Shown here in pieces: positions 2,994-17,900 of a stretch of 64,000 nucleotides of DNA. This DNA comes from a virus: IMG/VR virus record IMGVR_UViG_3300002461_001229; one strand, 5' to 3'. Position 1 is the first letter of the stretch; every line of letters begins with the position of its first letter. A program made the position numbers and the translations under genes. The notes under the pieces are model-generated. The model had not been told where the DNA came from. It did no database searches and saw only the letters and a program-made list of their open reading frames with translations.

Positions 2994-5900
2994 TATACCC
3001 CTTCAAGTCCGCGGAGCGGCTGCCGTGAACGGCTTGGGCTCCGCCGTCGTGGGCGAGGGCGAGGCAGGTTCAATTCCCCGCCGAAGATCTTCTCCGCGGC
3101 TTCGCGATTTTCGTCGCTCAGCGTCCCGCGACGGCTGCTCGTCGTGAGTTTTCGGCGTAGTTCGGAGCGGAGCGTCGCCTTTTGCTCGTCGGAAAGCTGT
3201 GCCTGGTACTCCTGATACAGAATCAATGCGTCCCGGACGCTTGCCCGCTTCATCCGCTCCGCGAGCGGCTTGGTCGGGGCGTCGGTTACGCCACCGCGCA
3301 TAAGTGGCGTTTTACCGAACAGCTCCTCGGCAGCCGATTGTCGCCGATCGGTCTTTTGTTTGCGGGCCTGCTTGGAGTCCAGCAGAGTATCGATCATCTC
3401 CGTTTCCGATGGCGTCGCGATCTTGCGAACCTCCTTGATGAGCCCGACCGGCATATTGCGGATCTGCAGGAAGAGCGGGTTGACCTCACCACCAAGAAGA
3501 AGCCGTTCAGCCTCTTGCTTGGTCAGGTCGCCGGCTTCGTACATTGCCTTCACTTGCTCGGAGATATCCTCGCCCTGCCGGGCAGCATCGCGGAGCCCGT
3601 TCAGGACGTCGCGGGCCGCTTTCGCCTCTTCGGTTTCGACCGTTGAGCTGAAACGTAGTCCATTGATCTTCGCAGCAAGCTTCTGTGCTTCCGTTCGCTG
3701 CCCTGTGAGCGACTTTTGATAGTGTCCGTACCCGACGCCGAGCATTGTGTGAGCAAACGCGGCCAGAGCGGTCGCAACGCCGCCGTCGTAGCCCGCCTCG
3801 ACCGTCTCTTGGAGGCCGAGAGGCGTTACTCTGGACACGATCGCCTTGTCCCATCGGAATTTTTCTCCGATCACGTTGGAATCCTGCACCCAATCGACCA
3901 TGAGCGAGGCCGGTGGCCCGAGCTTGGTGCGAAGGAAGTTCATCCAAATGCTCGTTTCGACGTTGAGCCCCATTTCCGCCCGGAACTCGTTGACCAGGAC
4001 GCGGCCATTGTCGTCGACGTGGTAGAGGCTGTCGCGGATCAGCCCGTTCGACCACTCGGGCCCGACGAATCGGCGAAGCGATGCCTGGATGATCCGCATC
4101 GTCACGCGAAGCGATTGCTGCATACCGATCAACATGTCCGTCGTGTCTTTGTCCTCCGGACCCCATCTAAGCTTGAGGAAGTCCGCATCGTCCCAATCGA
4201 AACCGATCGTCGCCCCGCCGAGCCATGCCAGCGACATCAACGCCCCGGTCGTGCCGTAGAAGCGGAGCGCATCGCGGAAGACGATCCTCCGGGTTTCCGG
4301 TGGGAGGAAAGCCATGCCGAGCGTCGATTTCCAGAGCAGCTTGAACCGGCTGAGCGTGAACCGCGGAGCGAACAGCGGCAGGTTCATCAGCAGGCTGGCA
4401 GCTCTGGATCCGCCGAGCAGCTCCGGTATCGCGGCCCGCCCGGTCGCGTCGTTGATGTAGGACGCCAACGCACGGTACTCCTTTGGATGAGTTTCGAAGG
4501 TGATCCCGCGGGAAGCCCACAACTCGGCGGTCTGGGCGAACGTCGAAAGCCGTTGAGCGTCGAGGAAGGCGGTGTACAGCTCGTCCGACTTCTGAATGAT
4601 CGCGTTCGGCAGGCGGGCGATATTGAACTTGTGGAAGCTTTTCCCTTTGCTCCAATTCGCCATGTGCCGGAGCATATTTGAGCGGAATTCTTCCTCGCCT
4701 TTCGTGATCGAGAATTCGCCGTGCTTGCCGAGTCCGGCATAGTCCATACCCGCCTGAACGGACAGCTCGAAGTATGGATTGTCCTCCATCGCATCCATCG
4801 TCCGTTCGTAGCCCAGCCGGTTGAACCGCTCCGTTGTCGCATTGAGTAACGCGAGGAAGGCCGGCCCCTGATCCTCCGGCCGGGCGAACATGAACCAACC
4901 GCCCTGCCGAAGCAAGAACGAAAGGTCCGCCGATGCCATTATCGCCCGAGGCGTGTTTATCGCTTCTCGTGCCTGCGAGACGCGGTACATGAATTCGCCC
5001 GAACCGATCCGCTTGAGCTCCTTCTCGATCTCGGCCTGCGATTCACGGGCACGGACACGGCTTGCCGCAACCTCTTTCTCAAGCTGGTGCAGCTCCTCGT
5101 CGCCCTGCTTGATCCGGTCCCGCAGCTCGTCCTTCCGCTCCTCCTCCTCGCGTTTGAATACAAGCCGGGCCTGATCGAGCAGCTCTTTGCCCTCGCGGAG
5201 AGCCTCGCGGGCATCCTTGTTCTTGATCCCGATCGCTTCGAGCAGCCGGTAGAATTCCTGCGCGGACGGCTTGCGATGGATCAGCTCTACCGCAGCCGCA
5301 ACGGCGGCTTCCTGGCCGGGCTTGGCGATGCGGGCAATGACTCCCTCGATCGTCGTCACGGCCTCGGTCTTCTGCCCACGCTCTGCCCGGACACGGTGAA
5401 GCTTGGTGATCAGCACCCGGCGCTCGAGTTCGTCGGCACGGGCCTGAATGATCGCCTCGATATCGTCCTCGGTCAGGTGGTCGCCGAGCTCGTCAATGAT
5501 GGCCTTGATCTCTTTCTTTCGCTGGTTTTCCTTGATCCACACATCCCGCTGACGAAGCGATTCGCGGTGAACGTCTTCAAGATGCGGACGGATGTCCTCG
5601 CCGTACATGGCGATCATTTGCTCGTCGAACGTCAACGGCCGGATCATCTTGTCGGATGGCAGGGCGAGGCCTTCGAGCAGAATGTCGGCGCCGAGGATAC
5701 CCATGTCCTTCAGGATCTCGTCGGGCAGTTTCGCCTCGTCAAAGACCGACATCATCGTCACATCGTCGAGCACCTGCTGTTCGCTTGCCGACATCGGCGA
5801 AACGTGCTGCGGGAATGCCGCCCGGATCAATGCCCGGCTTTGCATTCGCTGTAAGGCGGCAGCGACCGATTCCTTCTGCGATTCGCGGATCTCGGTTACG

Positions 5901-8900
5901 AACTTCTTGCGACGGCCGGTAACTTTTCGCGAGGTCCGGATGGCGTCCTCGGACCCGGCAAGCTCTTGCTTGAGCGCGTCGAGCTGTCGCTGCAGCGATT
6001 CCATTTGACGACGGAAAGCCTCATGCTCAGCGAGGTCAACTTCTGCCTTCCCGGCCTTTTCCTCGATCCGGCGAATGATGTCGGCCGGCAGATCGTTCCC
6101 GACGCCGTGGCGGTCCTGGTACGTCTTTTGGGCGACGGCGATCAGTCCGTCCGTTGTCTTGAGGATCACGCCTGCCGCCCGGATGAAGCGGCCGGCACGG
6201 ACCATCTTCATTGCCAGATGGACGCCGAGGTCGATTGACACGCGGCGAAGCTTGGCAGCCTCGTCCGGTTTCGTCGCCTCGATGCGGGTTGCTTCTTCAC
6301 GGAGCGACTGCTGGATGGAGAACGCGGCGATCGCGTGATGAACGTCGGGGCTTTCCGTGTTCTTGAGGATCTTCAGCACTTCCTCGGTGCTGTTCTCGGT
6401 GAGCATCCGCTTTGCCGCGGCCTGAGCTGCCCGGTCGCTGAACACCGTGTAGATCACATCGTCGGCAGCGATGCCGGCCGCACGCTCGGTGCCGGGCAGG
6501 CTGGCAAGTTCGGTTTTGGAGCGGACGCCGGGGAACTGCTTGGTTTCCGGGATCTCGGACGCGTCGCCGGCTACTTTGCTTTGGGTTTTGGGCTCGAATC
6601 CTTCGAGGTCGTAGGGCTTTGCTCCTTGCTCAGCATCAGGTCGTGGCGCTTCTTGAACTCCGCCAGACGCTCCGCTCGGCTTGCCTTTGGCATTTCCTTG
6701 CGTATCTCGGCCATCAGGTCGGCCGTCTGTGCCAGCATCGACCTCTTTTCGGGCTGCGGCGAGAACTCTTTGGGTTGCTTCTTGGACATGTTCAATCTCC
6801 TCAAATCGACGGAGTGCCGCCTCAACGGCACGCTCAGCGTCCTCATCGGACTTGCCCTCTTTCTTCGTGTCAGCATAGACCTTGTCGGCGAACGACTCAA
6901 GAAACTCGAACAAGTATTCCTGCCCCTCGTCCTTGGTCAGGCCGAGCTCTTCCCAGCTTCCCTCGGCGACCCACGCAGCGACCTCCTCGCGAACGAGAGC
7001 TTTGCTCAGAGCCTCAGCGTTCGCCTTGCTCATGTTGGCGGTTTGGCGAAGCCGCTCGGGGCTGTACTCGGGTTGCTGCGAGAAGAAGCTGTCCCACGCT
7101 TTCCGGACCTGCGGCATCTTGTCGAGCTCGGCCGGGCGTGCATGGCGTTTGGTCAGGTGCTTCTCGACCGAACCGAGATAGACCGCCTGGTGGAAGATCT
7201 CCTGCGGCAGCTTGGCATCGTACACGTAGAACACCGCGGTCTGCTGTCCGGCTTTGCGTGCGTCAGCGATGTCGTTGGCAAGGCCGCTCAGCATAGCGTC
7301 CGCGGCCGGATGCCCCGTTTCGGCCGCGTTGACGGCGGCGGCCATTAACGCCTGTTCGACCTTGATCAGTTTCGCGGCATCGGTGAACAGCCCGAGAAAC
7401 GCCGGATACGTGCTTTCGTCGCCGACCTTTCGCTTCCCTGCCTCGATATCGACCTGCTCGAAAGCCCGGCGAAGCAGTTCCATTGCCGGCAGATTGAGCT
7501 TCACGCGGTCACCGCTGCGAGTGGCTTCCACCATCGGCACGACGTCCTCGATATCGAGCGTCTTGAGGATCTTGATCGCCTGTTTGCGATTTTCTTCCTC
7601 GATCGAATACATCGGCTGCTCATCGGTCGCGAGAGCTTCGCGGAGCGGATCGGTAATGCCCATCGTCCAGACCGGATGCGTCTTACGCCGGAATACCTCT
7701 TTGGCTTCCTTGATGTACTGTTCCGCCGCCTCCCGCGTCAGGAAGGTGCCGCGGTAAGCCGGCAGGCCGGTCGCCGAATCGGTCGCCGTGACCTTGAAGC
7801 GATGCAGGTGCGGAGCGGGGTTGACCAGCTCCAGCTCCAGCTCCTCGACGCGGAAGTCGGTCAGCTTGAGATAGGGATCGTAAGAGATCTCGCCGTTTTC
7901 GACCTTTGCCGCATACCGCCCATAGATCTTCTTCATGTGGGCCGGAATGACCTTGTCGTACAGGTTGCGGAGCGAATCGCCGCCGATCTTTAGCCCGTCG
8001 CCCTCGATGGTGCCGCTTGTCTGTTCGAGTATCTGATTGGCGAGAGCCTTCGGAAACACCTCGGTCAGCTTCCGGTCAACGAACTTGTCCTCCGACGAAT
8101 TGATGATGGTGCCGTGCGGCCCCGCGGTGATCCTGATCGGATCGCGGTCGCCCTTTGCCGTTACGCGGATAAGCGACTGCCCGGAAAGGTTCTTGCTGAA
8201 CTCTATCCGGTCGACCGTTTTCTCGATCGGGTAGCGGGCAAGCTGCTGTTCGCCGGTCGTCCAGGCGACGGCATCAAGCCCTTGGTCGATCGCGTACTGC
8301 ATCGCGTACTTGAGCCCCATCTGCTTGTGGTACTTCTGCAGGACCGCGGGCATCTTCGCCATGTTGTCCTCGTCCGGCCCCTGAACCTCGTGGACCATCA
8401 GCGCGCGACGGCCATCGTCGAGCGTGACCTTGTCCATCCGGATGCGGACGACCGGGTTCTTGACGTCGGCATACTCGGGATGCCCGTCGATCCAGCCGCC
8501 CTCTGCGAACGGAGCGGTGAGGAACATTTCCTTGTAGTCCTCACGCGAAGCCGGGAACGGTTCGGCATAGCCGCGGAACTTGGCCGAGTCCTGATCGCCG
8601 TCCCAGCCGAGCGCGAGCGGTTCGACGACGATCTTGCTGGCCCGGATCTTCTTGAGCAGCTCGTCCTTCGTGATGGATCTTGCCCCGAGGTCCGCTTGCA
8701 GCTGGACGAACACATCCAGCAGGGTGTGATCAAGCTCCTCCGCGCGGATGCCGGGCAGCTTATTGATCACGTTCATTACCTGATCGACCGAGAACTTCTC
8801 TTGCTTGAGCCCTTCGACCGCCCGCTCGAGCCCGGAGTAGAACCGGACCTCTTTTCGTGCCGGTTCGTAGATCGAGAACATCGGCTGCCCTTCGTCCATG

Positions 8901-14900: not shown

Positions 14901-17900
14901 ATGTCAGACTTTGCGACCTCGTCGCGGCTCAGGCCGCTCGGTGCAACTGCGAGGAAACCGTGCCCGGCTTCGATCGCTTTTCGTACTTTCTTTTGGTTGC
15001 CGAGATAAACCGGCTCGGTGCGAGATTGTTCGCCAAAAAGGTTGGTGGTCGGGGCTTCGCCGGCAGGCGGCACCAGCTCGTCGAATAGGGCTCCGAGATC
15101 TACTTCAGTTCGCGGAACAGCTTCTCCGCCAGCGTCGCTTGCTGCTTGCTGATCATCGGAGATTCCTTCCTGAGATACTCCATCGCCTCGTCCAGCGTCT
15201 CGATCGACGGCATCGGGACGCTCGGCTGCTTCCTCGCGTACATTGCTATCGCCTGGTGTTCCTTCCAGAGCGGAGCTATCTCCAAAAAGGCTCTGCTCAC
15301 TTCCGGGTTCAATCCTTTGGCCCGGAGGCTTCGCATCGCTCTCTCGCAGGCTATCCGCATCTCCGGTTCGCTCAGTCGGAACATCGTCTTCCCGAACTTC
15401 GACATCATCGGTTCCGTCCTCGCTATCCGGTTCCAGATCTCGCTCGAAATAGTCATCATAAACCTTTGCTCCTTCCGGGATTCTAACATCAAAGCCGAAG
15501 TAGTAATAAAAATCGTCCTCCGTGACGACGTATTCGCCCGGTGCTTCGAACTCACTGAACTCGCCAACATGCTCAATTACGACATCCACCATCGGCGGAA
15601 GATCGCCCTCGCCGGCATAGACCTCCTCGACGTAAACAAAATCATCGTTCCGTCCGATCACATAGGCACCGCGGAACGCCGGTTCAAGCTTTTTGTTTTG
15701 TTCCCATTTGTGCGTGTAGCCGTAAACATCGATCAGCTGCTGGAGCGTGACCTTGCCGTCCTCTAAACCGCCCTCTATCTCGGCAACATTTGCGGCAACT
15801 TCTGAGGCGGTTTTCGCATTTCGGAGCAGCTCGTCGGCCTGTCTCCCGAATTTGTTCGAGGCGATCAGGTCGTAGATCTTCCGTTGAGCTATCGTCAGCC
15901 CCTCGCGGCCGATCGCGGCTTGCCGGACGAATTCGTCTAGGTTCGCACCGCGGAGCTCGGCCTCGCGGATCCACTCTATCGCGGTCGCGGCATCGGCGAT
16001 CAGCTGCTGGACCGCCTCGCTGTCCGTGTCTTCGCCCGACCAGCGGGAAATAATGCCCTGTGCGGCCGAGGAAGCCTTCGGCGTCGCTTTGTCGTTCCGC
16101 GTGTCGTAGAGCAGCTCCCCGATCTCCTCGCCGAACGTCTCAATGACCTGCCGGCGTGCTTCGGTTTCTGCCTTACTGAGCAGCGATTCCTTGATCGCCG
16201 CTTTGGAGTTATCCTCGGCTTGCTTTGGCTCGATCGCGGTCGGGCCGTCCTGAGCGAACAGACCGGTGTTGTCGGCTTCGAGGCCGAACAGGTCGGTCTG
16301 CTCGGCGCCGCGGAGCGCTTCGAGCGACGGTGGTTGTGCCTCCGGCGTCGCGGCATTGTCCGCCTGGTCCGTCTCACGCACCTCTTCCTTCGAGGGGAAA
16401 TACCAATCGAATTTTTGCTTTCCGGCCTTGAACGGAGGCGTGTTGCCGAGTGCCTTTTCGAGCTCGTTGATGTTCGCCTTCGCCCATCCGATATGGGTCA
16501 GGACGAGCTTCATGTTGACCGGTGCGCTGTTCCAGAGGTACTGATCAAGCTCCTCGGTCGCTTCCGGATTTTTCAGATCGGCCAAATTCGCGTTATAGCG
16601 ATTTGTCAGCCGCTCAAGTTCTGCGCGTTCCGCCGCCAATGCTTCTTCATTCGAGGCGTATCCCTGCCCTTTTTTCTTTGGAAACTTGCCTGCGTTATAG
16701 AACGGGTTCTCAAAAGCAAGCACATCGTCCAATGCCGGGACCTGAGCCGCCACCGAATTCCGGAAATCGCGGTGCCGTTCGCGTTCGGCCTGCCGTTCTG
16801 CCTCGGCTTCCTTGCTCAGCTCTTCGTCTTCTTGCTTTTCTTGCTCGGCAAAGAGGCCGGACGTGTCGGGGTTGCCGACTTCGCCTTCCGGTTCTTCCTT
16901 GAAGATGCTCGTTTCGCTGCCTTGATCGCTATCCGGTGCGCCTGATCCGTCAGGTTCGGGAAGCGTGTCCGCAGCTCCTCCATCCGTTTCTCCCCTATCT
17001 CGGGCGATTTCGAGGATCTCGCCGATGATGTCTTCGATGATGTCCGGGTCAAGTCCATAAATTCCTCCAAAGTCTTTGAGTATTTCGATCTCCGCATCGC
17101 TCACGCCTGCGGACCGCTCGAGCTCGGCGAGTATCGGTGCGACGGCGGGATCCGTCATGAATCGCTCGATAACACCGACCAGGCCGTATTCCTCTCGCGG
17201 CATCGTCATCAGCTGGTCGACCGCGGCCCAATCCATCGGCCCGCCCCACGTTTCCTCGGAATCTTCAGCGTAGGCCGCGAGGTACGCCCGGCTCATTGCT
17301 GCCCGCTTTTCCGGCGTGTCAGTCAGGCTGCGGTTTTCGGGATCGGCGGTCAGAGCCCGCGTCGTGTCGGACGTTTGCGGAGCCGTTACGAACGTACGTT
17401 TTATCCGTTGTATCGTATCGAATGCTTCGCCGAGAAGATCGTCCACGTGATCCTCTAGCAGCACATCCATGTTGATGCCGTCGAAGAATCGCGGGTCGGT
17501 CAGGCGTTCGATGACGTCATACAGCGAATGAATGTTCTCGTCCGTAGGCTGCTCCAGCAGTTTGTACTGTTGGGCAGCCTTGACGAGCTGTTGAAGCACG
17601 TCCTCCGTGAACTGCACCCATGCCGTTTCCTGCGAGTCCATGTAGGACGTGATTTCGGCTTGCAGTTCGCGGATCCTCGCACGCAGCGGCTCCCGCTGGG
17701 CCTTTGCCGCCTTGCTCTGGCCCTTGATAGCGTTCACCTGGGGTTTGATCTTCTCGATCTCCTCCAACTGCCCTGCCGTCGCGTCCGGGTCGATCTCGAA
17801 GGTCTGGAGCGTATCAAACAGGTCGCCGATTGTCGCGGCCGTGTCGCTGAACAGGTCCTCAGCGGTCCGGCGATTCGATTCGGTCGGCTTTTCTGTTTTG

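Follow-up and report, generated by a model that had tools for sequence, protein, structure and literature searches.

A probable nested gene in the +1 frame of a linker within a giant phage polyvalent-protein gene

A small reading frame inside a giant phage gene

The 64,000-nucleotide stretch of the virus record IMGVR_UViG_3300002461_001229 analyzed here (referred to throughout as the window) carries on its minus strand a single open reading frame (ORF) of 6951 codons, whose product, judged by its domains and genomic neighbors, is a "polyvalent" protein of a temperate phage. In a linker that follows a zincin-like domain of this protein, the giant gene contains a second, much smaller ORF in another frame, which we call ORF A. 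Codon bias in the host gene, conservation of the ORF among relatives, and sequence conservation specific to the +1 frame together make it likely, in our judgment, that ORF A is a real, separately initiated gene; this agrees with the initial annotation of this DNA, in which a second nested gene was proposed at this site.

ORF A lies wholly inside the giant gene and would be read in the alternative frame from its own start codon, which is preceded by a candidate ribosome-binding site (Table 1). The GAGGAG motif, the 7-nucleotide gap, the ATG, and the 72-residue product with a helical core that had been described for this locus were all recovered, on the minus strand and in frame +1. An AGGAG core followed by seven nucleotides is the commonest ribosome-binding geometry of the phage. 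No significant structure was predicted in the RNA around the start (z = 0.23), and the Shine-Dalgarno-like motif is unpaired in the centroid fold. A GTG codon farther upstream in the same frame is a possible alternative start; judging from the relatives, it is less likely to be used than the ATG, because a stop codon lies one to three codons before the ATG in those sequences. In the host frame, the overlapped residues 5686-5758 begin with the final turn of a conserved helix and continue as a linker rich in Gly, Asp, Ala, Pro, and Lys, and the sequence that the initial annotation quoted as a disordered linker of the giant protein is indeed what the main frame encodes here.

Table 1. Features of the giant gene and of the ORF A locus (window coordinates; GC3, G+C content at third codon positions)
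Feature	Coordinates	Strand	Remarks
ORF A, candidate nested +1-frame coding sequence, 72 amino acids	6571-6789	minus	ATG 6789-6787; TAG 6573-6571
Shine-Dalgarno-like GAGGAG (core AGGAG)	6797-6802	minus	7-nucleotide spacer 6796-6790 before ATG
Possible alternative GTG start, same +1 frame, 86 amino acids	6829-6831	minus	GAGGA 8 nucleotides upstream
Low-GC3 segment, GC3 0.38	6620-6838	minus	Score 20.9; spans ribosome-binding region and structured core of ORF A
Low-GC3 segment, GC3 0.42, strongest in giant gene	15086-15514	minus	Score 33.8; coincides with gene B
Upstream zincin-like domain, residues 5410-5700	6746-7618	minus	Family consensus HExFH; QEIFH at 7190-7204
Last helices of upstream domain, residues 5623-5683	6797-6979	minus	Modelled docking site of ORF A
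Downstream conserved domain, residues 5770-5960, motif LPGT.RAAG	5966-6538	minus	ORF A ends just before; outside predicted interface
Host gene, phage polyvalent protein, 6951 amino acids	2990-23845	minus	Domains DdrB-like ParB, SNF2/ResIII helicase, methyltransferase, others

Codon usage and conservation in the two frames

The host frame shows a pronounced codon-usage anomaly over ORF A. GC3 in the main frame is 0.43 there, as against a gene mean of 0.74; the same amino acids encoded with the codon usage of the gene would be expected to give 0.74 +/- 0.05, so that the deviation amounts to z = -6.1 and was reached in none of 5000 shuffles. The A/T-ending codons that had been remarked on as atypical are thus strongly so, and the frame-specific codon bias that had been suggested as a check is present. 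The overall G+C content of the patch is normal (0.57) and only its phase is shifted: when ORF A is read in the +1 frame, G+C at codon positions 1/2/3 is.53/.43/.76, which compares with.65/.42/.74 for the whole gene. We also scanned all 6951 codons for maximal segments of low GC3, with a null maximum of 13.0 in 500 permutations, and only two segments exceeded this value, one at ORF A and one at gene B (15100-15459), another +1-frame ORF in a linker of the same giant gene. Six of the approximately 11 other linkers of the protein have an ordinary GC3 (0.66-0.82), which shows that linkers do not in general have a low GC3. Across the seven giant genes of the family that were compared, the host-frame codon-usage z over the ORF core is negative in 7/7, with values of -4.2, -3.2, and -2.8 in three of them.

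A word-index search returned two full-length relatives of the giant protein, P0004 and P0005 (46-49% identity), and an exhaustive search of representatives found 57 relatives, all of which have a variable low-complexity linker between a conserved F-E-x-[IV] helix and the LPGT.RAAG motif. The relatives read as DNA encode proteins of <5000 amino acids and are designated L249-L254 and L255; their 400 flanking residues are about 30-43% identical to the window protein and 29-65% identical among themselves. In 8/8 relatives with DNA (flanks of 28-43% identity), a +1 ORF of 59-75 amino acids beginning with ATG occupies the same junction. Its start falls in the final helix of the upstream domain and, in the alignment, deviates by no more than two codons from a common host position; its stop immediately precedes the LPGT.RAAG motif of the downstream domain. 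Against the 35% of other linkers that hold such an ORF, the chance of this occurrence is ~0.35^8 = 2e-4 if relatedness is ignored. The conservation of the ORF in homologues, which had also been named as a check, is therefore borne out and extends to its start.

The starts themselves carry further information. A +1 stop codon lies one codon before the ATG in L250 and L252 and a few codons before it in L251. At 7/7 of the starts analyzed, the host uses the T-ending synonymous codon that makes the ATG, and the product of the corresponding codon frequencies is 0.009. Between L250 and L252, a 17-nucleotide block containing both AGGAG and ATG, GAAGGAGTAACTTATGA, is identical. At the eight loci examined, no annotation calls the ORF. 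Long overlaps on the same strand are disallowed by gene finders, and a gene such as ORF A is consequently invisible in annotations.

To compare the frames, we used the same nucleotides throughout and trimmed 15 residues from the start, where the ORF overlaps the conserved helix of the host. With BLASTP, 5/28 pairs of +1 peptides gave E < 0.05 (3e-7, 9e-7, and 3e-5 among L250, L251, and L252, 0.002 for the window and L249, and 0.028 for another pair), as compared with 3/28 pairs in the host frame (0.014-0.034) and 0/28 in the +2 frame. In phmmer searches of a six-frame database of 24,895 sequences, cross-hits were confined to the +1 frame. For L250 and L252, nucleotide identity at host codon positions 1/2/3 changes from ~.6/.7/.4 in the flanks to.45/.50/.58 within the core of the ORF; in other words, the least conserved codon position tracks the +1 frame within the ORF. 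Over 28 ungapped codons, the window and L249 are likewise.54/.57/.32 identical at +1 positions 1/2/3, and in the segment that reads RAERLAEFKK in the window and RADRLAHLKK in L249, four changes are silent in the +1 frame but alter the amino acid in the host frame. The frames are not distinguished by crude global identity. Taken together, GC3, the BLASTP comparison, and the phase shift point to purifying selection on the +1 frame, with constraint on the synonymous sites of the host; this evidence stands apart from a formal ratio of non-synonymous to synonymous substitution rates (dN/dS), for which the sequences are too few and too diverged.

Searches of GenBank phages and PLSDB plasmids by tblastn, with either the region or the peptide, returned no match, and neither did 40 related genomes. 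Patterns derived from the peptide and degenerate DNA patterns detected no true relative in IMG/VR, JGI metagenomes, or GTDB genomes, and two broad degenerate scans gave only hits that a tblastn check showed to be due to chance. The best-case +1 peptides deduced from the P0004, P0005, P0126, and P0131 proteins scored z = 3.2, 0.3, 0.8, and 0.6 against a null that is too permissive. In the NCBI contig behind P0155 (L255:1-1899), a run of N splits the giant gene into two frames; P0155 was considered as a stand-alone downstream module and rejected, its 441-residue "protein" being an annotation artefact of that run.

Modelled fold and partner, and the alternatives

AlphaFold2, given an alignment of seven sequences, models ORF A as a hairpin of two helices, 13-32 and 38-57, whose flanking ends are basic and disordered; the predicted local distance difference test (pLDDT) is >90 at residues 21-50, and its mean is 73. 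The ORF of L251, which represents a second subclade and was modelled from its own three-sequence alignment, has the same architecture, with helices 14-33 and 36-50. The domain upstream of ORF A was described in the initial annotation as a degenerate zincin, and an alignment of 30 relatives agrees with this: the consensus is LPHExFHQA, and the window, as well as P0004 and P0005, has QEIFH, with Gln in place of the first His of HExxH, the motif for metal binding and catalysis. By homology, the domain belongs to the same fold family and is probably inactive as a peptidase here; the subclade formed by the window, P0004, and P0005 has lost the first metal-binding His, and the putative processing peptidase may therefore be inactive in it. 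Iyer et al. (2017, PMC5512222) proposed that polyvalent proteins are cut into functional units by the zincin-like (MPTase) domain.

We modelled ORF A together with the zincin-like domain and the downstream domain as three chains, using alignments of our own. The complex scored 0.80, and the best of three controls scored 0.00; among reference cases, the 0.80 mark was reached by 58/80 solved complexes and 2/110 mismatched pairs, a calibration that applies only roughly to a three-chain model built from our own alignments. The runs share at least 69% of their contacts, and the pLDDT of the partner is at least 65. All confident contacts are predicted between residues 17-53 of the ORF A hairpin and residues 5623-5683 of the giant protein, and the predicted interface includes the family-invariant Phe of the RFEE motif and, on the ORF A side, Leu19, Ala23, Leu42, and Phe45. 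The helices that form this modelled docking surface are encoded immediately upstream of the ORF A start.

These results suggest a mechanism in which ribosomes would initiate at the internal AGGAG-N7-ATG of the giant late mRNA and produce a protein of ~8 kDa, in which a helix-turn-helix hairpin is flanked by an N-terminus that is basic and disordered and by a disordered tail of Ser, Pro, and Lys. This hairpin would bind the C-terminal helices of the zincin-like domain (residues ~5623-5683 of the giant protein), and the product would then be a cis-encoded partner of that domain, with a role as chaperone, cap, or regulator. Selection acting on the small protein would fix its second codon positions, and these coincide with third positions in the host; the host frame could tolerate this constraint because the stretch is only a composition-constrained disordered linker. 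A purely inhibitory role appears less likely than a structural one, since the catalytic motif is degenerate in this phage and ORF A is nevertheless kept.

The strongest competing explanation, which we nonetheless regard as unlikely, is that there is no gene at this site. On this account, the +1 ORF, its ATG, and its Shine-Dalgarno motif would be by-products of the linker and of conserved host residues (Asp/His/Tyr-Val/Glu for the ATG and Glu-Glu for the Shine-Dalgarno motif), and the low GC3 would be noise or a patch acquired from a relative of lower G+C content. Several observations weigh against ORF A in this respect, beginning with the ORF itself. Its length is unremarkable, given that 30 stop-free +1 runs in the giant gene reach 72 codons or more and 14 ORFs that begin with ATG encode 72 amino acids or more. 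When the host amino acids are kept and synonymous codons are shuffled, the +1 frame remains open over the 72 codons in 86-87% of shuffles; computed for each gene, openness has P = 0.42-0.86, with a product of ~0.055, so that 42-86% of the shuffles keep the frame open. A +1 stop requires a host codon with T at position 2, that is, a hydrophobic residue, and because the linker has almost no hydrophobic residues, its openness is near-automatic. The coding-like +1 GC3 of 0.76 is also set by the host residues (shuffle null, 0.77 +/- 0.01). Across seven giant genes (that of the window and those of L249-L254), +1 ATG ORFs of 55 amino acids or longer occur in 17 of the 48 other linkers of low hydrophobicity, and +2 ORFs in none of the 48. 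ORF length, openness, and a coding-like +1 GC3 do not exceed chance expectation, and the mere presence of an open +1 ORF in a linker of this kind is no evidence of a gene. Other linkers of the window with +1 ATG ORFs include residues 8-75, 472-515, 1218-1296, 2274-2374, and 4211-4277; most of the ORFs in other linkers are probably by-products, because most show a normal host-frame GC3.

The start signals, the relatives, and the model attract objections of the same kind. The GAGGAG motif falls on main-frame Glu-Glu codons that are conserved as Glu or Glu-Gly across relatives, and it is for this reason weak independent evidence, although it has the AGGAG geometry typical of the phage. The DNA comparison covers relatives more distant than the closest ones, P0004, P0005, P0126, and P0131. 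The codon-usage anomaly is weak in four relatives of lower G+C content (z = -0.3 to -1.2), and the GC3 of the relatives, 0.44-0.56, means that a recombined patch could appear A/T-rich at third positions. Neither a profile of the L250, L251, and L252 peptides nor hhalign reaches ORF A of the window, whose sole sequence link is to L249, through a match of 10 residues (E = 0.004 when counted as one comparison); the proposed homology of the whole set accordingly rests on position, size, and predicted architecture together with that link. Searches of Pfam, PHROGs, PDB sequences, the ESM Atlas, and Foldseek gave no match for the family or fold, or only designed helical proteins. Finally, good folding and docking scores are common in models of short amphipathic helices.

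What tells against the absence of a gene is the evidence that is specific to this site and this frame. The GC3 anomaly is one of only two in the giant gene and occurs in a patch of normal G+C content, the ORF is present in every relative with DNA against a background of about one-third, and the complex model passes its controls. Moreover, the +1 peptides are better conserved than the main frame on the same bases, with the phase shifted and with changes that are silent only in the +1 frame. The statistical lesson is that an open +1 frame in a linker is to be expected, and that anomalies at host-frame synonymous sites and frame-specific conservation are what discriminate.

Another explanation, which we hold to be improbable, is that ORF A is a relic: a small gene that was once separate, or a helical segment that was once in frame, which has been read through in another frame since a module fusion and is no longer expressed or needed. 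Codon use suits the +1 frame better than the host frame, a classical sign that the +1 frame is the older one, and polyvalent proteins evolve through module fusion (PMC5512222). However, the arrangement is common to relatives down to ~30% identity, beyond the persistence of a neutral imprint or of an intact ORF with its start, and the +1 frame shows ongoing constraint.

We consider programmed +1 frameshifting very improbable. It would yield a truncated giant protein in which the zincin-like domain ends in the hairpin, comparable to dnaX or to the tail chaperones G/GT. The hairpin is predicted to pack on the helices just preceding it in the polypeptide, as a continuation in cis would; in addition, the +1 frame of the window is open for 49 codons upstream of the ATG, and the low-GC3 segment starts 49 nucleotides upstream of it. 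The +1 stops just before the ATG in L250, L252, and L251 nevertheless make entry upstream of the ATG impossible in those relatives, the ATG and the Shine-Dalgarno-like motif are conserved, and no slippery motif was seen by inspection. A homing insertion of the ShiLan type (PMC11855218) was rejected on account of the lack of a nuclease domain and the presence of the ORF in 8/8 relatives examined. A single paralogous family of nested peptides is not supported; ORF A resembles neither gene B nor a third nested ORF.

Known overlapping genes and the phage setting

Among the closest precedents for ORF A as a nested gene are Rz1 in Rz, the same-strand embedded gene of lambda-type spanins, and other phage genes embedded on the same strand. 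Rz1 is also a small +1 gene with its own start inside a larger late gene. The Rz1 product is a physical partner of the product of its host gene, a relationship that for ORF A is predicted. Unlike Rz1, the ORF A peptide has no Cys or lipobox, no signal peptide or hydrophobic N-terminus, and no role in lysis, and its host is a 6951-residue polyvalent protein that it overlaps in a disordered inter-domain linker. The overprinted B, K, and E genes of phiX174 (reviewed in PMC8227390) similarly combine two proteins per stretch, ordered and disordered frames, and asymmetric codon usage; in contrast to phiX174, compaction is no obvious driver in a phage of ~60-70 kb, and the overlap of ORF A appears to be tied to partnership with the host polypeptide. 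The ShiLan insertion, which lies in a phage methylase and conceals an HNH endonuclease in another frame (PMC11855218), likewise hides an ORF in a stretch that the host gene reads through; unlike it, ORF A has no nuclease or other enzymatic domain, and its distribution is not patchy, every relative examined having it at this site.

Within the giant gene, gene B is the nearest counterpart, as it lies in the +1 frame of a linker and coincides with a collapse of host-frame GC3. The two share no sequence similarity (E = 0.074), differ in length (119 residues in gene B and 72 in ORF A), and occupy different junctions; far fewer relatives were found for ORF A, with none in IMG/VR or among GenBank phages. 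ORF A is probably the second nested gene of this giant gene after gene B and, on the modelled interaction, probably encodes a binder of the adjacent domain of its host protein. The host gene shares the architecture of polyvalent proteins with their MPTase domain (Iyer et al. 2017, PMC5512222), and the domain before ORF A belongs to a family with the HExxH consensus; in this phage, unlike in the MPTase domain described there, Gln takes the place of the first His of the motif. That study does not mention overlapping or nested genes, and full-text searches of the literature returned no account of genes nested in those for polyvalent proteins.

If ORF A is a gene, the disordered linkers of giant injected phage proteins are more than spacers, and the poorly understood zincin-like processing domain of polyvalent proteins gains a concrete partner. 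ORF A would also be a natural overlapping gene whose product binds the protein encoded by the overlapped gene, a case relevant to co-translational assembly and to the origin of genes by overprinting. We can speculate, with considerable reservation, that the linkers of polyvalent proteins systematically encode small out-of-frame proteins that bind a neighboring domain of the giant protein, with ORF A and gene B as the first examples. Such a rule, if true, would mean that cis-encoded chaperones, caps, or regulators are made beside their nascent target and are hidden from gene callers.

The assignment of the giant gene to a polyvalent protein of a temperate phage is based on its domain set, on its tail, terminase, and lysis neighbors, and on a nearby integrase. 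Domains of the ddrB-ParB, ResIII/SNF2, Helicase_C, and MTS families were detected in the protein, and relatives of its C-terminal part have LPD1, LPD5, MuF_C, and ART-PolyVal domains, which are typical of the polyvalent class (PMC5512222). The gene is surrounded by phage tail, terminase, and DnaB genes and by a lysis cassette with a holin and an Amidase_3 endolysin, and the integrase lies just outside the window; many unrelated effector domains are thus joined in one polypeptide in a late or virion gene setting.

The phage belongs to a bin of just 855 kb with a completeness rating of 95%, and an identical giant protein is found on a 759-kb contig. The bacterial host seems to have a very small genome, which is unusual for a temperate phage of 60% G+C with a 21-kb gene. 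Contigs from drinking-water and biofilter metagenomes (2024) match window positions 5000-8500 letter for letter where they cover them, and activated-carbon metagenomes (2015), a possible source of this DNA, carry the same stretch. No polymorphism was found in contigs from four runs of two other studies, and other contigs with the phage are 100% identical; the phage or its host thus recurs in engineered water systems with no visible variation. The lysis cassette (1771-2864), which consists of a 108-residue protein and an endolysin with Amidase_3 and PG_binding_1 domains, is mosaic: its homologues (50-67% identity; L002, L003, L005, and L006) occur in phages with other neighbors, and two of the phages that carry them encode different polyvalent giants, of 4169 and 3441 amino acids, elsewhere in the genome.

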